From the NCBI GenBank assembly GCA_038061795.1, contig JBBTYL010000001.1, positions 1,801 to 65,800 of the forward strand: DNA of 64,000 bases. The letters run 5' to 3'. Each line of letters begins with the position of its first letter. Position 1 is the first letter of the stretch. Below the pieces are notes generated by a model that had not been told where the DNA came from, did not search any database, and was given only the letters and a program-made list of their open reading frames with translations. The position numbers and the translations under genes are program-made. Shown in pieces: positions 3,484-22,488 of the stretch. This stretch comes from Patescibacteria group bacterium (GTDB taxonomy: Bacteria > Patescibacteriota > Minisyncoccia > Phycocordibacterales > PALSA-1337).

Positions 3484-3516
3484 CAAGGAAGATAGGATAA
3501 TTTAATAAAAGCGAAA

Positions 3517-3543
3517 AGAGCCCTAGAAATAGGGTTCTTTTTG
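3517..3543 (+). terminator. Rho-independent terminator after rpoC
   Basis: AGAGCCCTA-gaaa-TAGGGTTCT stem followed by a T-run. Confidence 0.8.
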
Positions 3544-3557
3544 TATGTGGACATCTA

Positions 3558-3587
3558 TTGACTTTTAGCTATAAATCGTGGTATAAT
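3558..3587 (+). promoter_or_regulatory. Sigma-70-type promoter
   Basis: TTGACT (3558-3563), 18-nt spacer, extended -10 TGgTATAAT (3579-3587). Confidence 0.65.
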
Positions 3588-14566: not shown

Positions 14567-15208
14567 GTGATAAAATATGTGATATTAATTTGCTTTATGA
14601 TCAAGCAGGCATTCAAAAATCCATCGACAGTAATTTTAATTCTTTCAAACCTTATTCCTCTTTTCGGAGTTCTCTTTCTAGAGTGGAACATTTTCTCGAT
14701 ATTAATTCTATATTGGGCAGAGACAGCGGTTATCGGACTTTACACAATTTTTAAAATAATTATATTTCATCGATGGAAGGCTATTATGTTGGCGCCATTC
14801 TTTGTTGTTCACTTCGGTATATTTATGTTGGGGCACCTCATTTTTATAGTCGTGCTTTTTGCAAATCCAGATGGATTATCTTCTTATAATGTTGGAAATA
14901 CTCCTTCATACCTACTGATACTTTCACTCGTTAAACCTCTCGCGATTGCTTTCTTGTCTCTCGTGCTAAGTCACGGATACTCATTCTTTGCGAATTATAT
15001 TGGCAACAAGGAATATCTAGAAAGGACAAAGGATCCATTTTTATCGCCTTATGGAAGGATTGTAATCATGCACCTCACAATTCTTTTTGGAGGCTTTCTC
15101 TCAATGATATTCGGAAATGCAGTCTTTGCACTTGTTTTAATGGTCATTATGAAAATCGTAGTTGATGCGCTATTCCATATGAGACAACATGGTTTACTGA
15201 AAAGATAA
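14567..15208 (+). CDS. Multi-pass membrane protein (DUF6498-like)
   Basis: LSNLIPLFGVLFLEWNIFSILILYWAETAVIGLY pattern and several TM helices. GTG start in the ORF track; ATG at 14597 is an alternative. Confidence 0.7.
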   Translation: MIKYVILICFMIKQAFKNPSTVILILSNLIPLFGVLFLEWNIFSILILYWAETAVIGLYTIFKIIIFHRWKAIMLAPFFVVHFGIFMLGHLIFIVVLFANPDGLSSYNVGNTPSYLLILSLVKPLAIAFLSLVLSHGYSFFANYIGNKEYLERTKDPFLSPYGRIVIMHLTILFGGFLSMIFGNAVFALVLMVIMKIVVDALFHMRQHGLLKR

Positions 15209-15227
15209 AAAAGACCCAGTCCATTCT

Positions 15228-15809
15228 ATGTCCCACCCCTACAAACTAATCCGCTCTCGTCGCAGGTCAATCGCGCTTATGATTTCTTCTGACGCGACGC
15301 TTGTCGTTCGTGCGCCGATTTTTGTTTCTCGATTCCACATCGAGAACCTCATCGAGCGCAAGAAGGATTGGATCTCTAAGCATCTGGAACGCAAGCGGCA
15401 AGTAAAAACGGGAGCGAAGAAAGAACTTCTTTTTCTTGGCGAGTTGAATCCGATGGCATTCGAAAGTCGAGAGAAGATGGTTGCTTGGTATCGGAAGCAG
15501 GCTCGGGAAATCCTAACGCAAAGAATGGAGCATTGGAGCAAGCTTTCCGGCTGGCAGTTCAAGTCCATGTCTATCAATGGCGCGCGGACGAGGTGGGGGA
15601 GCTGCGGGCCGAAGAACAGCATCAATTTTAGCTGGAGGCTTGTGATGGCCCCGATGCATGTTGTCGACTATGTGGTGGTGCATGAGCTGGCGCATACTGT
15701 GGTGAAGAATCATTCGAGGAAGTTCTGGGAGGCAGTGGCGGGTGTGATGCCGGATTATAAGGAAAGGAGGAAGTGGTTGAGGGAGAATGAGGGGAGGTTT
15801 GCAAGCTGA
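15228..15809 (+). CDS. YgjP-like zinc metallopeptidase (DUF45/M48 family)
   Basis: HELAH zinc motif (VVHELAHTVVKNHSRKFW) in the typical C-terminal position. Confidence 0.85.
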   Translation: MSHPYKLIRSRRRSIALMISSDATLVVRAPIFVSRFHIENLIERKKDWISKHLERKRQVKTGAKKELLFLGELNPMAFESREKMVAWYRKQAREILTQRMEHWSKLSGWQFKSMSINGARTRWGSCGPKNSINFSWRLVMAPMHVVDYVVVHELAHTVVKNHSRKFWEAVAGVMPDYKERRKWLRENEGRFAS

Positions 15810-15862
15810 AACTGTATAGGCAACACTTCTTTTAATTTGTCTACTTACACTATATTTTACTT

Positions 15863-16447
15863 ATGATATCATTGTATATGATTATTAGTGTAAATAGCAA
15901 TAAAATGAAAGAAAATACAAAATTCTACATTACTCTTACTGGCAAGATAAATATACCAGAGCTAGAAATAAGCCAAGATGTTGCAGCTAAAATTATAAGA
16001 TTAATCGTGCCCCTATCATCTAATGATTTGATTCCTGATGAAGAAGTTTCAAATTTTAAATCTATTCCAAATGATACTAATTTGAATACCTCATTGACTG
16101 CTAAACATTTTATGTCACAGAAGCAACCTAAAAGTGATATGGAGAGGGTTGCTTGTCTTGCTTATTATTTGGCACATTATAAGAATATTGGACAGTTCAA
16201 GACTATTGATCTTACTCATTTAAATGCCGAGGCAGCTCAACCAAAATTTTCCAATGCTTCGGTGGCTGTCGCGAATTCTACGAGTCAACAATATTTAGTT
16301 CCTGCTGGAAATGGTAAAAAGCAGATTACAGTTAGAGGTGAGGCACTTGTTGCGGCTCTACCCGATCGTGCTGCAGTAAAAAACGCTTTAGACTCTAATC
16401 CTTCACGCGGCAATAAACGTAAAAATATTAGTAAGAAAAATAAATAA
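15863..16447 (+). CDS. Hypothetical protein, first gene of the DUF3800 operon
   Basis: AT-rich ORF with a lysine-rich C-terminus. Its stop lies 3 nt before the next start. No family recognised. The likely start is MKENTKF at 15906. Confidence 0.6.
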   Translation: MISLYMIISVNSNKMKENTKFYITLTGKINIPELEISQDVAAKIIRLIVPLSSNDLIPDEEVSNFKSIPNDTNLNTSLTAKHFMSQKQPKSDMERVACLAYYLAHYKNIGQFKTIDLTHLNAEAAQPKFSNASVAVANSTSQQYLVPAGNGKKQITVRGEALVAALPDRAAVKNALDSNPSRGNKRKNISKKNK

Positions 16448-16450
16448 TTT

Positions 16451-16636
16451 ATGAAAATGATATTAAAACCAGGACAAATCGTTCCCAAGTCAGGTCAGTA
16501 CGAAAGGATTGGTCCAAGAGGTGGTGAGACAGGCAAGGAGATCACTGGAGTTAAGGGTAAGCCACTTCCACCAACTCCAGTAGTGGGCTCAACTTATAAG
16601 TTGGTTGATAAGACAAAGCATAAAAGAAATGGCTAA
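16451..16636 (+). CDS. Small YjzC-like protein (61 aa)
   Basis: KPGQIVPKSGQY...G...PLPPT pattern recalled from YjzC-family proteins. Overlaps the next gene by 8 nt (ATGGCTAA). Confidence 0.45.
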   Translation: MKMILKPGQIVPKSGQYERIGPRGGETGKEITGVKGKPLPPTPVVGSTYKLVDKTKHKRNG

Positions 16637-17300
16637 ATCTCAATACTACATATTCATAGATGAATCTGGTGACCCCGGGAAACCATTCAATTTTGATAAA
16701 GATGGGTCAAAAATTCCTACAGGAGCAAGTTTATACTACATTCTTTCCGCAATTTGTCTTAATTCACAAAAATTGTTTTTGTTAGAAAATGGGATAATGG
16801 GTATTAGAAATAAATATGGATTCAAGAGTGAAATAAAGTCAAATATTATTCCATTATCAATGTATGAAGAAATTCTAGACCTTGTTAATCAGCTCAGAAT
16901 ACCCATCTATTATCGTCTTATAGACAAAGCAAAGTATAAGGGAAAATTTGCAATTTCTGGACACGAAAAACTACACAATATTTTTGATGATTATAATCTA
17001 TCGAAAGTTGCATTATTTGCAGCAAAAAAATGTAGCAATCAAGGGATTGAGGTAGTAATTGATCGTGCAGACCGAAGAATGTATAAAGGAAAATTTGACC
17101 ATTTTAATAAATATCTATTTGAAAGAGTAAATACAAAAACTTTTGAGCGAATTAAGCATATTACTCATGTAGATTCTGAATACGTGAACGCGATGCAACT
17201 GTCTGACCTTGTAAGTGGAGCAATTAAAGATTATTTTACTGGTAAAAACAAGGATTTAAGAAAGAGAATAGATAAGAAATATCTATATAAAATTTATTAA
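16629..17300 (+). CDS. DUF3800 domain protein
   Basis: N-terminal YYIFIDESGDPG motif is characteristic of DUF3800. I prefer the MAKSQYY start over the ORF-track start at 16605. Confidence 0.7.
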   Translation: MAKSQYYIFIDESGDPGKPFNFDKDGSKIPTGASLYYILSAICLNSQKLFLLENGIMGIRNKYGFKSEIKSNIIPLSMYEEILDLVNQLRIPIYYRLIDKAKYKGKFAISGHEKLHNIFDDYNLSKVALFAAKKCSNQGIEVVIDRADRRMYKGKFDHFNKYLFERVNTKTFERIKHITHVDSEYVNAMQLSDLVSGAIKDYFTGKNKDLRKRIDKKYLYKIY

Positions 17301-17527
17301 ATTAGCAAAAGAGCGGGCCCTAGACCTAGGACACGCTCTTTTGCTACTAAACAGTCATGTTTCGTACATTTATTATACTAGCAGCCGGAGATATTAAAGT
17401 CAACTAAACCCAATATTACCTACCACACCACAATTTTTCCATTTAAAATATAAAAGATACGAGTTACTCTGGTATTAAATTCAATACCTTGACTATTGGT
17501 ACTTGTTAGTGTTTTAATGAACATATT

Positions 17528-18214
17528 ATGCTAGTAGTTAAAACATACTCCTTTAAGGGCGGCGAAGAGTTTATTAAAGAACGTCACAAATCTGAACTTT
17601 TTGAGGTTGTCGATGCTATATCTAATCTTGATGCGATCACCTGTCTTACTAAATTAAGTAGTGAAAAGACAAAAGTTGGCCAACTTTTGTTTTCTCCGAC
17701 TGACCTCAATAAGGCACTGAAGATTAAGCTTTGTGAAAACGGATGGACAGAAAAGTCCAATGGCAAAAAGGGTTATATAGAACCGCGTCATGCATTTGGA
17801 AAGAACCGTTTCCGAGAAATGGATGGAATCAAAAGTAAGGTTGGTTTGGAAATACAGTTCGGGAAATATGCCTTTATGGGTTATGATATTTTCTCGAAAA
17901 TGGTTATTTTTAATAAATTAGGACTTATTGAGTGTGGTATTGAAGTTGTTCCAGTTAATGAACTTTGTAAGCATATGTCTACAGGTGTTTCCGATTTTGA
18001 TCAATTGCTTATTGATTTTGAGTATCGAGGTGAAAGCAATATTGATATTCCTGTATTTGTCATTGGTATTGGACTTACTGATAAAGAAAAAGATGCACGT
18101 GAAGAAATGCAAAAACTTTATTCAACAAATCGAGCTGAAGCAATTAAAATAATTAAATTAAGGAAATATAGCGGCTCATTGCCCGGACCTAAAGAGATTA
18201 CTTCTGGCTTTTAG
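17528..18214 (+). CDS. Type II restriction endonuclease, BglII/BstYI family
   Basis: Blocks align to BglII from memory: KVGQLLFSPTDLNKALKIKL vs KVGSLIFDPVGTNQYIKDEL, and DGIKSKVGLEIQF vs DFGKRDTLVEVQF. The D-X8-E-X-Q catalytic spacing is conserved. Confidence 0.75.
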   Translation: MLVVKTYSFKGGEEFIKERHKSELFEVVDAISNLDAITCLTKLSSEKTKVGQLLFSPTDLNKALKIKLCENGWTEKSNGKKGYIEPRHAFGKNRFREMDGIKSKVGLEIQFGKYAFMGYDIFSKMVIFNKLGLIECGIEVVPVNELCKHMSTGVSDFDQLLIDFEYRGESNIDIPVFVIGIGLTDKEKDAREEMQKLYSTNRAEAIKIIKLRKYSGSLPGPKEITSGF

Positions 18215-19111
18215 AAATTCTTCAGGCATTTGACTCAATTTATTTAGTTTTTCTGGTGCGTGGATAGGTGTTCCCATTGTTCGTCTTTTTAAACTGCCAT
18301 CTGCAGCAGCAATAATTCTTTCTTTTGCAATTTCAAGATATTTTTTACCAATATCAGAACCAAAACCTTTTCGTCCGTGTAGTATTGCAGCACACAAAGC
18401 ACTTCCAACACCGACATATGGATCCACAACCACGTCTCCTTCATCAGTGAGAGATAATACAAGTCTTTCAATCAATTCAATAGGGAACTGACAGGGATGA
18501 TTTGTTTTCTCAGGATGGTTACTTTTAACATTCGGAATATCCCAAACATCTGAAGGATTTTTTCCTAAAGGATTTCCTGATAATTCACCTTTTTTTGCTC
18601 CATCTTTATAGTTCCTTTTTCCAGGATATTTTTGCGGGACTCGAATTGGGTCAAGATTAAAAGTATAGTCATCTGACTTTGTGAACCAGATAATCGTTTC
18701 ATGTCTTCCAGAAAGTCTTTTTGATGAATGTAGACCATGCCCAAAGTGCCACACTATTCGATTTCTTAATTTAAGACCATATTTTTTTGCAATTGGATAA
18801 ATGAGCATGTCTAAAGGATAAATCTCACCATCTTTAGCGACATGATTACCTACTTGCCAACATAAGCTACCAGAATCTTTTAGAGTCCTGACAGCTTCTT
18901 TGATTGTTTCCTCTTGATCCGCAAGATATGTTTTTAGACTTCGTCGTTTTTCGTATTCTTTTCCAATATTATAAGGTGGTGAAGTTACTACAAGTTTAAC
19001 CGAATTGTCAGGTAATGACTTTAATAGTTCAAGTCTATCACCACAAAAGAGAACAGCATCACTCTCAGGTTGATATTTGTTTGTAATTTTTATTTTTTTA
19101 AGTGATGACAT
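18176..19111 (-). CDS. Beta-class N4-cytosine/N6-adenine DNA methyltransferase
   Basis: The TSPPY catalytic motif precedes the AdoMet motif VVDPYVGVGS. SPPY is typical of N4-cytosine MTases such as M.BglII and M.BamHI. Confidence 0.85.
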   Translation of the reverse strand: MSSLKKIKITNKYQPESDAVLFCGDRLELLKSLPDNSVKLVVTSPPYNIGKEYEKRRSLKTYLADQEETIKEAVRTLKDSGSLCWQVGNHVAKDGEIYPLDMLIYPIAKKYGLKLRNRIVWHFGHGLHSSKRLSGRHETIIWFTKSDDYTFNLDPIRVPQKYPGKRNYKDGAKKGELSGNPLGKNPSDVWDIPNVKSNHPEKTNHPCQFPIELIERLVLSLTDEGDVVVDPYVGVGSALCAAILHGRKGFGSDIGKKYLEIAKERIIAAADGSLKRRTMGTPIHAPEKLNKLSQMPEEFLKARSNLFRSGQ

Positions 19112-19197
19112 ATGGCGAATTATCTCTTATTTCCTTTATTTTTTCAAATAGAAAATGTTTTATTAATAAATTTGTTTTTTTTACTCACTGTACATCC

Positions 19198-19227
19198 TTG
19201 CTAAGTAAACGAACGTTCACCTATAAT
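19198..19227 (+). promoter_or_regulatory. Promoter of the Y-family polymerase gene with an embedded GAACGTTC palindrome
   Basis: TTGCTA (19198-19203), 18-nt spacer containing AAACGAACGTTC (19207-19218), TATAAT (19222-19227). The ATG follows 7 nt later. Confidence 0.55.
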
Positions 19228-19234
19228 ATAGGGC

Positions 19235-20485
19235 ATGGCCACCTTTCTAAACCGCTCTCAATCTAAAATGATCCTCCACATGGACGGCGATGCTTTCTTC
19301 GTCGGCGTTGAGGTTGCCAAGAATCCCAAGCTCAAGGGCCTGCCTGTCGTCACTGGCCAGGAGAAGGGAATCGTTACGGCATTGTCATACGAAGCCAAGG
19401 CTCTTGGTATCAGTCGAGGCATGCCCGTCTTCAGGCTCAAGAAACTCTACCCCAAGGTCATCATCCTTCCCGGAGACTACAAGTCCTACGCTGACTATTC
19501 ATCGAGGATGTTCGACATCGTGCGCAGGTATGCCGATGACGTGGAGGAATACAGCATCGATGAATGCTTCGCTGATCTCACTGGTCTCGAGCCTCCGCTC
19601 AAGATGACCTATCGACAGATGGCAGAACGGATCAAGAAGGAAATCACCGAGGAGCTCGGGCTGACGGTGTCGGTAGGATTGGCGCCGACGAAGGTCTTGG
19701 CGAAAGTCGCATCGAAGCATCAGAAGCCAGATGGACTGACAGTCATAAATCAGGATGAGATAGGGAAATATCTATCAGAGACGCCAATCGGAAAGATCTG
19801 GGGTATCGGTGCGCAGACGTCGGTGGCGATGATGAAGAAGGGGATAAAGACAGCGCAGGATTTCGTCATGAAGGATGTCTCGTGGGTGAGGGAGCATCTC
19901 TCGAAGCCTCACGAGGCGATCTGGCAGGAATTGAGGGGCGTGTCCGTCATGGAGCTCGATCCGCATTCGAAGACGGAGTATTCGTCCATGCAGCGAACGC
20001 GATCGTTCCATCCGGCGACGAATGACGAGATATTTCTCCTTTCGCAATTTTCAAAGAATATGGAAGAGGCATGTGCCAAGGCTCGGCATTTTCAACTTGT
20101 GCCGAAAGCAGTTTCCATTTTTCTCAAGACGAGGGATTTCCAGTATATCAATCGATCTTTCAATTTAACCTCGCCAACCAATACACCAGAACCGCTCATG
20201 GCACTTGTCCGCGAACATTTCAAAGGCATGCATGTGAAAGGCGTCCTCTATCGCACGACTGGCGTGAGCTTGCTCGGCTTGGTGCCCGAAGGTGCAGCAC
20301 AGAATGATCTCTTTGGAGGCACTGACAGAGCACATAGGTTCGAGGCAGTTCACAAGCAGATCGACAAACTTGAAGAAAAGCACGGCAAGCGCATGGTCTA
20401 TCTGGCCTCGACTCACGATGCACTCAAAAGCAAAGGTCTTGGAACTGAAATGGAGGATTTGGATAGAGATTTGTTGTTCCTTTAG
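19235..20485 (+). CDS. Y-family DNA polymerase (DinB/UmuC-like)
   Basis: ILHMDGDAFFVGVE and SIDECFADLTG motifs. Confidence 0.9.
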   Translation: MATFLNRSQSKMILHMDGDAFFVGVEVAKNPKLKGLPVVTGQEKGIVTALSYEAKALGISRGMPVFRLKKLYPKVIILPGDYKSYADYSSRMFDIVRRYADDVEEYSIDECFADLTGLEPPLKMTYRQMAERIKKEITEELGLTVSVGLAPTKVLAKVASKHQKPDGLTVINQDEIGKYLSETPIGKIWGIGAQTSVAMMKKGIKTAQDFVMKDVSWVREHLSKPHEAIWQELRGVSVMELDPHSKTEYSSMQRTRSFHPATNDEIFLLSQFSKNMEEACAKARHFQLVPKAVSIFLKTRDFQYINRSFNLTSPTNTPEPLMALVREHFKGMHVKGVLYRTTGVSLLGLVPEGAAQNDLFGGTDRAHRFEAVHKQIDKLEEKHGKRMVYLASTHDALKSKGLGTEMEDLDRDLLFL

Positions 20486-21270: not shown

Positions 21271-22488
21271 ATGCTATACTTTTTACATATGCTACCGGCT
21301 CAACAGCCCAAAAAGCTTTTCGGATTGAACAAGAATATCTTCATGCTCGGACTCACGAGCTTCTTCAATGATTTTTCGAATGAAATGATACTATCGTCAT
21401 TTCCAGCTTTCTTTACTTCAGTATTGAAATCAGGCGCGGCATCGCTAGGCCTTGTGGAAGGAATCGCCGACGGCGCAGCAAACATTCTAAAGATCTATTC
21501 AGGTCAATTATCAGACAAGCTTCGCAGGCGCAGGATATTCATCTTCATCGGCTACAGCTTATCGGTGGTGGTACGCCCATTCTACATCCTCATGGGAAGT
21601 GTAGCTGGAGTTCTCGGCCTGCGCGTCATTGATCGTGTCGGCAAAGGCATCCGCGAGGCTCCGCGTGACGTAATCATATCGGTGTCTTCATTGTCGGGAG
21701 AGGTGGGAAGATCTTTCGGGTATCACAGAGCCATGGATACAGTCGGAGGAATTCTCGGTCCGCTTACGGCTTTCCTTATATTGGAAAATTGGCCTGGCGC
21801 ATTCAGCACTGTATTTATGACTGCCTTCGTCATCGGACTGTTATCAGTGGCTACCATCTTCTTCGTCAAGGATGTCTTCATTGCTCCTGCCTTTGATGGA
21901 TCTCGAAGATTTTCATTCGCGACGCTCAGGATACTCCCGAAAAGATTCAAAATATACCTTGTTTCGATTTTCATCCTTTCGATCGGCAGCATTCCAGCAG
22001 CTGTGCTTCTACTTTCTGCGCTATCAATCGGCCTTACAGTTGCCTCAATACCGCTTTTTTACATGGTTTACGGCATCTCATTCACATTCTTTTCGTACGG
22101 GGCGGGGAAATTAAGCGATGGCATCGGCACATCAAGAGTTCTCGTTTTCGGTTATGTCTTGCTCGTGCTTTCTTATCTGATGTTCGTTCTTGCACAGACG
22201 ATTCCGACGCTTGTCATCGCTTTCATCACCTTTGGGATTTTTTCGGCTTGCACGGATTCGACACAGCGGGCTTTTGTCGCAAAAGCTACGCCTGAGTCAG
22301 AAAGAGGGACGGCTTACGGGATGTTCAATGCCGTCGTTGGTTTCGGCGTCATGTTTGCCGGCATTATTGGAGGATACCTATGGCAGCATTTCGGAGCCCT
22401 AACATCGCTTTTTGTGGCCGAGGGCTTCGTTCTTGTCGGACTCATTCTATTTTTTGTCAGCTCAAAGGTCGGAAAGAATATAGCTTAA
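21271..22488 (+). CDS. MFS transporter
   Basis: About 12 hydrophobic segments and a loop motif DRVGKGIREAPRD. The start may be MLPAQQ at 21289. Confidence 0.85.
   Translation: MLYFLHMLPAQQPKKLFGLNKNIFMLGLTSFFNDFSNEMILSSFPAFFTSVLKSGAASLGLVEGIADGAANILKIYSGQLSDKLRRRRIFIFIGYSLSVVVRPFYILMGSVAGVLGLRVIDRVGKGIREAPRDVIISVSSLSGEVGRSFGYHRAMDTVGGILGPLTAFLILENWPGAFSTVFMTAFVIGLLSVATIFFVKDVFIAPAFDGSRRFSFATLRILPKRFKIYLVSIFILSIGSIPAAVLLLSALSIGLTVASIPLFYMVYGISFTFFSYGAGKLSDGIGTSRVLVFGYVLLVLSYLMFVLAQTIPTLVIAFITFGIFSACTDSTQRAFVAKATPESERGTAYGMFNAVVGFGVMFAGIIGGYLWQHFGALTSLFVAEGFVLVGLILFFVSSKVGKNIA

Follow-up and report, generated by a model that had tools for sequence, protein, structure and literature searches.

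Do genes that lie tightly packed beside a restriction-modification (R-M) system necessarily form a defence system of their own? The question is raised by a 64,000-nucleotide stretch of Patescibacteria DNA (GenBank assembly GCA_038061795.1, contig JBBTYL010000001.1, positions 1,801 to 65,800; referred to here as the window), in which three open reading frames (ORFs) follow one another in the same direction at 15905-16447 (ORF1), 16451-16636 (ORF2) and 16629-17300 (ORF3). A first-pass annotation, made from the sequence alone, described them as an operon of one gene with no assigned family, a YjzC-like gene and a DUF3800 gene, and proposed the trio as a candidate defence module. Retrons, CRISPR loci and defence islands repeatedly contain DUF3800 genes, and since 2017 these genes have also been recognised as neighbours of many unrelated structured RNAs. 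Our analysis gives a different view of the locus. The constant partner of the window's DUF3800 gene is not ORF1, ORF2 or the adjoining R-M pair; it is an overlooked small RNA (sRNA) whose gene is read from the other strand. The interval as a whole is best explained as a mosaic, assembled within a low-GC variable island from three parts that are each independently mobile.

The close packing of the three genes is real. The reading frame of ORF1 is open from 15863 to 16447, and its homologues place the true start at the ATG at 15905, giving a protein of 180 residues. Its stop codon is separated from the start of ORF2 by a gap of 3 nt, and ORF2 and ORF3 overlap by 8 nt (ATGGCTAA). In a promoter and terminator scan one promoter-like site was seen ahead of ORF1, and nothing resembling a terminator before 17300; ORF1, ORF2 and ORF3 are probably co-transcribed. 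Conservation of the trio as a system is another matter. We compared 91 ORF1-relative loci besides the window, 80 of them representing one genome per species and the remainder metagenomes, with 79 metagenome loci encoding close relatives of ORF3. Neither an ORF2 nor an ORF3 relative was found in any of the 91 ORF1-family loci (tblastn at E <1e-3, and clustering of downstream genes); none of the 79 DUF3800 loci has an ORF1 relative, and in only about 11 does an ORF2 relative lie directly upstream of DUF3800. Judged by the co-occurrence test that the first-pass annotation had itself named as a refutation, conservation of the three genes as one system finds no support. Tight coupling had been taken as the sign of a dedicated operon. 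The upstream neighbours of DUF3800 come from many unrelated families, but 33 of the 41 distinct ones are co-directional with it and 20 of these 33 end no more than 11 nt from its start. Because such unrelated neighbours are so closely spaced, tight coupling is best regarded as a general habit of the DUF3800 cassette, and for annotation the lesson is that tight gene spacing beside R-M genes is insufficient to infer a multi-gene system.

The partner that does recur is found downstream. In 36 of 39 loci the gene that follows DUF3800, on either strand, is at least 80 nt away, which leaves room for an sRNA, and in the window conservation, covariation, a strand test and a covariance model define a predicted sRNA gene at 17290-17379 on the minus strand, convergent with ORF3, in the supposedly intergenic 17301-17527. 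Across 40 distinct loci nucleotide conservation starts exactly at the ORF3 ATG, the sequence upstream being at background level, and ends beyond a hairpin on the far side of the gene; it is about 0.7 over the coding sequence compared with 0.91-0.99 over 17304-17333. The hairpin is kept in all 52 other loci that have an intact DUF3800 gene and at least 150 nt of downstream sequence. Its best-matching 36-52 nt are 92-100% identical to the window in 45 of these loci and 77-89% identical in seven, and the DUF3800 proteins encoded at the same 52 loci are 62-83% identical. The conserved hairpin (17305-17344) also contains the palindromic hexamers GGGCCC and CCTAGG.

The predicted transcript extends in the window from about 17368 to 17296 (~73 nt; up to ~100 nt elsewhere) and folds into a variable 5' hairpin (17349-17362) and a conserved long 3' hairpin (17303-17346), beyond which a U-rich tail runs up to the ORF3 stop codon. 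Fold z-scores range from -4.6 to -8.1 across copies, with -5.6 in the window. The consensus of the U-run after the 3' hairpin is UUUUUACCAUAUUU, and the window copy is poorer (UAAUUUAAU). The sRNA ends at the ORF3 stop codon, and its overlap with the ORF3 mRNA depends on where that mRNA ends. The promoter scan placed a sigma-70-type promoter at 17375-17403 on the minus strand (TTGACT, a 17-nt spacer and the extended -10 element TG-n-TAGTAT), about 35-60 nt upstream of the 3' hairpin, and the same -35 and extended -10 elements occur at the same position in most loci.

That the hairpin acts as RNA, and on which strand, can be judged from its pattern of substitution. On the minus strand RNAalifold recovered 18 pairs, nine of which show compensatory double changes. 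In the hairpin alignment 98.8% of cells are paired, pairing falls to 29-59% when the register is slid, and not one of 500 column shuffles reached any of the five observed measures. When the alignment is read as the minus strand, 871 of 882 cells pair, 63 of them as G-U, compared with 809 of 882 and a single G-U pair on the plus strand. One invariant U-G pair contributes 49 of the 63, and the remaining 14 against one still point in the same direction. Since the G-U pairs are nearly confined to the minus strand and a conserved promoter is aimed at the hairpin, we regard the hairpin as part of a transcribed minus-strand RNA.

With a covariance model trained on 49 copies, the window scores 79.9 bits and every related locus searched scores 68-99 bits; the sRNA is also detected at loci outside the training set (L128, L140, L163 and L170-L177). 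The model has no match in loci of the ORF1 family, nor where ORF2 occurs without DUF3800. A second match in the window (3498-3578, minus strand, 27.6 bits) is the hairpin of the rpoC terminator and was rejected as a further copy. No Rfam family was matched at the sRNA, either at gathering score over the whole window and 14 related loci or at E up to 5 over 15000-19500. Among the loci examined, the sRNA is known only beside a DUF3800 clade whose named members are all Patescibacteria. An exact search of IMG/VR for the hairpin core gave no matches, and the ORF1 family gave one among 2.9 million viral contigs; as far as IMG/VR shows, neither appears to be phage-borne.

The conserved unit is thus a promoter-less DUF3800 gene with a convergent sRNA, about 0.78 kb in all. 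Its two parts do not decay alike. Six independent loci carry truncated or frameshifted DUF3800 genes (L162/163, L164/165, L167, L170-172, L173 and L174), and as upstream sequence is present at these loci they are not contig-end artefacts. Some of the decayed genes retain only the last ~48 codons, at about 90% identity. The sRNA is kept at all six (85-98 bits), and its promoter is intact at those inspected (L162, L165, L170 and L173). Conversely, no intact DUF3800 gene without the sRNA was found among the 52 loci with at least 150 nt of downstream sequence. An RNA that protects against the protein would be expected to outlast the gene, with the gene never outlasting the RNA; this is what the loci show, and it is from this asymmetry that we infer such a protective role. 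The surroundings of the unit are varied. The 150 distinct neighbours in about 40 DUF3800 loci include many R-M components (type I, IIG, ISP, ResIII and Tsp45I). Serine recombinases also occur, as do Fic, NYN and WYL proteins, and housekeeping genes such as TGT, SecDF and MreB are interspersed.

ORF3 (16629-17300, plus strand; 223 residues, beginning MAKSQYYIFIDESGDPG) was correctly assigned to DUF3800, scoring 44.9 bits against the Pfam profile PF12686 (cut-off 21) over profile positions 1-146 of 149. D11, E12, D99, D145 and Q190-x-x-D193 are invariant among 37 homologues. The DE and C-terminal QxxD motifs described for DUF3800 (PMC7736814) are both present, as D11-E12 (in IDESGD) and Q190-L-S-D193 respectively. 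The AlphaFold2 (AF2) model (predicted local distance difference test score, pLDDT, 79; predicted template-modelling score, pTM, 0.80) adopts a predicted RNase HII-like fold, and the best Foldseek matches are archaeal RNase HII (1eke, E 3.7e-6), 2dff and human RNase H2A (3puf). The likeness to RNase HII and H2A extends over the whole length (template-modelling scores, TM, of 0.52-0.57) and includes the DE pair at the end of the first strand. Identity is, in contrast, 12-15%, and a phmmer search of PDB sequences with ORF3 returned nothing, with the result that only the fold comparison is informative. The structural check suggested for DUF3800 by the first-pass annotation therefore did yield an RNase H-type fold, and we predict that ORF3 is a nuclease with an RNase HII-type fold. 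Its relatives form more than 120 clusters at 65-83% identity, and all those named by organism are from Patescibacteria lineages.

How much of this is new should be made clear. The earlier statement that DUF3800 has no established function still holds experimentally; it overlooked, however, that an RNase H fold had been obtained by modelling other members (PMC7736814, PMC10910872) and that ties to retrons, CRISPR and structured RNAs had been published (PMC7736814, PMC10910872, PMC12669027, PMC5737381). The RNase H fold, the association with defence and the company of structured RNAs were accordingly already known (PMC5737381, PMC7736814, PMC10910872, PMC12669027, PMC13594972). New here are the sRNA with no Rfam match, its mapped promoter and strand, the asymmetry of decay and the cassette behaviour, and likewise the ORF1 family, recognised here together with its exchange of partners.

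In the model that we infer from the gene structure, fold, conservation, covariation, strand, promoter, co-occurrence and partner swapping observed in these loci, binding of the RNA to the protein, toxicity, autoregulation and an anti-phage role would each have a place. We tentatively suggest, as the leading possibility rather than a probability, that the unit is an RNA-antitoxin-type toxin-antitoxin (TA) or abortive-infection module, placed in this genome under an ORF1-controlled promoter. The sRNA, made from its own promoter, would bind the nuclease and hold it inactive in a type III-like manner. A fall in the supply or integrity of the sRNA, as might follow from transcription shut-off or RNA decay in an infected cell, would free the nuclease, which might then cut RNA or RNA-DNA hybrids and so arrest the cell. 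ORF1 would most likely repress its own promoter and so set the level of the ORF2-DUF3800 message, with ORF2 as a small accessory protein. There is a precedent in the abiF RNA motif, which was found by comparative genomics and turned out to serve AbiF as a type III-like antitoxin RNA (PMC12373285).

Several points weigh against this proposal. Toxicity, RNA binding and phage defence have been shown experimentally for no DUF3800 protein. The sRNA is single-copy, downstream and convergent, whereas canonical type III antitoxins are tandem repeats lying upstream. Part of the conservation of the 3' hairpin could reflect use as a shared terminator, and with so poor a U-tract in the window the position of the sRNA end there is uncertain. 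The 5' parts of the sRNAs pair with their own translation starts no better than with those of other loci (-12.9 vs -12.3 kcal/mol, p = 0.07), which removes one regulatory route and leaves the binding model unaffected. ORF1 and DUF3800 are linked at one locus only, the homologue closest to ORF1 stands alone, and the adjacency in the window may be fortuitous. The main counter-evidence comes from Legionella, where a strain-specific accessory DUF3800 gene was scored essential by transposon sequencing (Tn-seq) alongside antitoxin genes (PMC7811196), a pattern more typical of an antitoxin.

The Legionella result raises the possibility that the roles are reversed, with the sRNA, or the transcription that it drives into the gene, being harmful and DUF3800 acting as a protective RNase. 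RNase HII-type enzymes do degrade RNA in hybrids such as might arise from convergent transcription, but the six loci with an apparently intact sRNA and promoter beside a decayed DUF3800 gene should then be lethal, and we think this reading very unlikely. The same six loci bear on the idea that the sRNA is a cofactor or guide, and that a DUF3800-sRNA ribonucleoprotein recognises nucleic acid and cuts the RNA of hybrids or of a target. Much about the family is in keeping with it: the RNase H fold is common to RNA-guided nucleases, DUF3800 is an accessory at Cas12a2/a3 and Cas13 loci (PMC10910872, PMC12669027, PMC13594972) and is fused to retron reverse transcriptases, makers of RNA-DNA hybrids (PMC7736814), and the sRNA joins a conserved scaffold hairpin to a variable 5' part. 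This variable part, however, forms a hairpin of its own in every copy examined, which is unlike a free guide segment, and the persistence of the sRNA without its protein is hard to accommodate, so a guide role seems unlikely. A further reading is a selfish mobile cassette, in which the hairpin is a DNA-level site for single-strand recombination or nuclease recognition, DUF3800 is a mobilising or homing nuclease, and any defence function is incidental. Sharp boundaries of conservation, highly variable neighbourhoods with unrelated upstream genes abutted, truncated copies, serine recombinases among the neighbours, and a hairpin conserved beyond the needs of pairing and bearing palindromic hexamers would all suit such an element. 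The bias in G-U pairs and the conserved promoter speak instead for a transcribed RNA, there is only one copy in the window, and IMG/VR holds no exact copy of the core; we regard such a selfish cassette as distinctly unlikely.

Two further explanations remain to be weighed. If ORF1, ORF2 and ORF3 were one dedicated defence system with mutually required parts, their tight spacing, the single upstream promoter-like site, the lack of an internal terminator and the position in an island adjoining R-M genes would be accounted for, as would the finding that in about 85 of 90 ORF1-family loci with enough downstream sequence a partner of at least 240 residues abuts ORF1 on its downstream side. The trio is nevertheless seen in the window genome only; no more than about 15% of DUF3800 loci have ORF2, which is also found beside unrelated genes, and no PADLOC partner model, PDC-M04B or other, matches ORF1 or ORF2. 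We consider this improbable. The defence-module proposal is supported in part, by the real genes, the RNase H fold, the match of ORF3 to a PADLOC candidate model and the R-M neighbours, and loses the conserved trio. At the other extreme, DUF3800 might simply do housekeeping work in Patescibacteria as an RNase H-like enzyme, with the hairpin a mere terminator, as the very good conservation of the protein, the large number of clusters, drawn from many candidate phyla, and neighbours such as TGT, SecDF and MreB could suggest. Patchy and variable positions, pseudogenised copies and the low-GC island argue otherwise, the hairpin is on the opposite strand with its own promoter, and a plain terminator would not be expected to stay 92-100% conserved while the coding sequence drifts. 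This explanation appears to us highly improbable.

Comparison with known systems places the RNA-antitoxin proposal in context. The DUF3800-I to -XI RNA motifs (Weinberg et al. 2017, PMC5737381), several of which are in Rfam (e.g. RF02969 and RF02968), resemble the sRNA described here in being structured RNAs beside DUF3800 that are supported by covariation and whose function is not known. They occur on either strand and often end in a Rho-independent terminator. The present sRNA differs, in a comparison made through Rfam only, in being a simple two-hairpin RNA with an identifiable promoter and no Rfam match. ToxIN (PMC8860590) and AbiF-RCd22 (PMC12373285) likewise combine a protein nuclease with a structured RNA, encoded in cis and equipped with transcription signals of its own, occur in defence or mobile contexts, and show an RNA that outlives the decayed protein gene. 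In ToxIN, though, the RNA is an upstream tandem repeat array, set off from the toxin gene by a terminator and processed by the toxin, and the proteins of these systems have a ToxN/AbiEii or Abi_2 fold rather than the RNase HII fold predicted here. Type I TA systems with a 3'-overlapping antisense RNA, in turn, encode a small hydrophobic peptide, and ORF3 is a 223-residue soluble protein with a nuclease fold.

The type VII retrons and the CRISPR-associated tetratricopeptide repeat (TPR)-DUF3800 proteins (Cas12a2/a3 and VI-F) share an RNase H2-like DUF3800 and a defence centred on RNA or hybrids (PMC7736814, PMC10910872, PMC12669027, PMC13594972). Unlike them, the window has no reverse transcriptase, TPR domain or large cas-sized gene within 5 kb of ORF3 according to the ORF listing and Pfam. 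Specifically, no scanned ORF in that range matches a reverse transcriptase, ORF3 has no TPR match, and the scanned flanking ORFs match no Cas family in Pfam, although no dedicated search for a CRISPR array was made. The ORFs of at least 300 residues within 5 kb are the methyltransferase, the Y-family polymerase and a 405-residue ORF at 21271-22488, which was outside the Pfam scan and reads as a multi-pass membrane protein. In addition, the C-terminal QxxD is intact in ORF3, whereas retron-linked DUF3800 proteins are without the Q (PMC7736814). The PADLOC search that had been recommended gave a divided result: ORF3 matches the candidate model PDC-M04A (E 8.7e-12), but ORF1 and ORF2 match nothing and no second PDC-M04 component was detected, and the match may reflect only general similarity among DUF3800 proteins.

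The wider interest of the DUF3800 unit lies in its simplicity. With one gene and a two-hairpin sRNA with a mapped promoter in about 0.78 kb, the Patescibacteria clade is a compact test case, and the pattern of decay points to a toxin-antitoxin relationship. If this is true, it would bring a new toxin fold and a new architecture to the RNA-antitoxin systems, and could suggest a function for the eleven orphan DUF3800 RNA motifs.

ORF1 (15905-16447, plus strand) raises questions of a different kind. From the family alignment, the AF2 model and Foldseek, the 180-residue protein comprises a small variable N-terminal beta-hairpin and helix, joined by a disordered linker to a C-terminal winged helix that is strongly conserved (pLDDT >90 over residues 66-165), and a basic tail, with the invariant or near-invariant motifs ERVACLAYYL and LNxEAAQPKFSNAS. 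Foldseek gave only generic winged-helix matches (MarR, Rok and MCM8-WH), every one at E >0.03; nothing was found in Pfam, NCBIfam or PADLOC, and a search of PDB sequences with the family profile produced only spurious matches to a designed repeat protein. On the strength of its model, ORF1 is a predicted winged-helix DNA-binding protein of a family that carries no annotation. The family is large: a word-indexed search gave 201 matches, an exhaustive profile search 1600 clusters at 50% identity (446 of them with E <1e-30) and species-representative genomes 181 matches, and it spans Acidobacteriota, Nitrospira, Planctomycetota, Verrucomicrobiota, Actinomycetota, Bacteroidota, Chloroflexota, Proteobacteria and Patescibacteria.

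Clustering of the genes downstream of ORF1 in 90 loci showed that its partners differ in type, and the family normally heads short cassettes with interchangeable enzyme partners. In 63 of the 90 loci the partner is a ParA-like ATPase followed by a RelA/SpoT-type nucleotidyltransferase akin to small alarmone synthetases. In 16 it is a protein of about 255 residues without annotation, and in three a protein that matches PADLOC PDC-S05 and, weakly, a PLD domain. Single loci have partners matching Aga_HEPN / PD-Lambda-3_B or PD-T7-3 in PADLOC, and YjzC-like plus DUF3800 genes are partners in the window only. The commonest cassette is exemplified by L001:6001-8304 and recurs in about 60 further loci (L006, L007 and L015-L091) from many phyla. 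It consists of an ORF1-like gene, a ParA-like gene (~333 residues) and a RelA/SpoT-type gene (~242 residues) that overlap or lie a few nucleotides apart, and in PADLOC it draws only a weak match to PDC-M28B. Exceptions to the downstream partner include L067, which has short ORFs only, and L092, where the closest ORF1 homologue (68% identical) is found. At L092:5540-5650, after this homologue, there is a long hairpin of ~100 nt (CCCTTGCAGGAGGTGGAA...TTCCACTCCCTGCAAGGGG) and then a T-run, which could be another RNA partner or a mere terminator; further on, judged by eye, is a tRNA on the other strand.

The promoter-like site upstream of ORF1 was placed by the promoter scan at 15844-15882 on the plus strand (CTTACA-17-TATCAT, with TG ahead of the -10). 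A palindrome, ATGATATCAT (15863-15872), which overlaps the -10, and a further ATATGAT overlap this site, and autoregulation by ORF1 through the palindrome would fit. As in the window, seven relatives in the same ORF1 subgroup have comparable palindromes 20-40 nt before the start (including ATGATACGTATCAT, ATCCTAAnnTTAGGAT, ATCATAATATTATGAT and TATGCTTATAAGCATA). Beyond this window-related subgroup such palindromes do not stand out, and no shared one was found among the ParA/RelA-type loci; a search of 85 ORF1-family promoters for an 8-mer that might be a common operator found none above shuffled controls. We describe 15844-15882 as the putative autoregulated promoter/operator of the ORF1 cassette.

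In having a constant first gene followed by varied enzymes, including RelA/SpoT proteins like small alarmone synthetases, the ORF1 family resembles the toxSAS TA modules (PMC7229694). The DNA-binding fold of ORF1 and the palindromes at its promoter also recall modular TA systems. Another modular toxin-antitoxin family with a constant partner and swapped toxins is that defined by the 'Panacea' antitoxin domain. Unlike the antitoxins of such systems, ORF1 shows no relation in sequence that could be detected to antitoxin domains already known, and about 70% of ORF1 loci have a ParA-like ATPase in between. The family has no model in Pfam, NCBIfam or PADLOC, and its swapped enzymes mark it out as a candidate new modular conflict system. 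It is conceivable, though we consider it doubtful, that both parts of the picture apply together, an RNase HII-fold nuclease checked by a convergent sRNA being one effector of a modular immune or TA platform in which the phylum-spanning ORF1 family is the constant regulator or sensor. The effectors of such a platform would then be the ParA-like ATPase with the alarmone-synthetase-like protein, and HEPN-like, PLD-like, PD-T7-3-like and DUF3800 proteins.

ORF2 (16451-16636, plus strand; 61 residues) encodes a small protein. Its assignment as YjzC-like falls below the threshold of the Pfam YjzC profile (PF14168; 16.3 bits against a cut-off of 25, E 0.013), but it matches phrog_3202 at E 2e-13 and, because several close homologues carry PF14168, the relation to YjzC is likely. 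No PADLOC match was found at E up to 0.1. The family consists of small proteins and is widespread (184 matches). Relatives of ORF2 precede DUF3800 behind a type ISP R-M gene (L176/177), precede a DUF2130 gene adjoining a HindIII-type R-M system (L178-181), and lie beside an RloB and AAA_21 pair (L182-185). Elsewhere in Patescibacteria, two unannotated groups of proteins precede YjzC-like plus DUF3800 genes (L138:515-1285, L111:997-1713, L145:4198-4815 and L176:2393-2998). These groups, c14 and c19, share a C-terminal domain of about 55 residues (hhalign 95.5%) and occupy the position that ORF1 has in the window, although they are not detectably related to it. Homology between this domain and the N-terminal hairpin-helix of ORF1 was considered and rejected, with hhalign probabilities of 0.1-0.4%.

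The setting of the locus was largely as first described. The source is a Patescibacteria metagenome-assembled genome (100% identical entries P0001 in the ORF1 search and P0121 in the ORF3 search), and as the window also has rpoC and dnaG it represents chromosomal DNA. GC content is 0.32-0.36 over 16000-19000, compared with about 0.37-0.54 (mostly 0.41-0.49) outside, and this island is flanked by a YgjP-like gene (15228-15809) and a Y-family polymerase gene (19235-20485). Within it is a type II R-M pair (17528-19111) identified by Pfam and PADLOC, with a BglII-like restriction endonuclease at 17528-18214 on the plus strand (Endonuc-BglII, E 2.9e-15; REase_II) and an N6/N4 methyltransferase at 18176-19111 on the minus strand (N6_N4_Mtase, E 1.7e-54; MTase_II). 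The pair shares the island but is no recurrent partner of ORF1, ORF2 and ORF3, and none of the 79 DUF3800 loci has a relative of the endonuclease. In a broader sense the co-localisation with R-M genes stands, since members of the DUF3800 clade and of the ORF1 subgroup are often found beside them, the latter at L009, L010/011, L096 and in the window. Fusion proteins of 514-534 residues, combining a LexA DNA-binding domain, an S24 peptidase and an N6/N4 DNA methyltransferase, adjoin ORF1-like and ORF2-like genes (L096:1817-3421 and L178:1268-2812). In the window itself the endonuclease and methyltransferase genes are convergent, and their 3' ends overlap by 39 nt (18176-18214).

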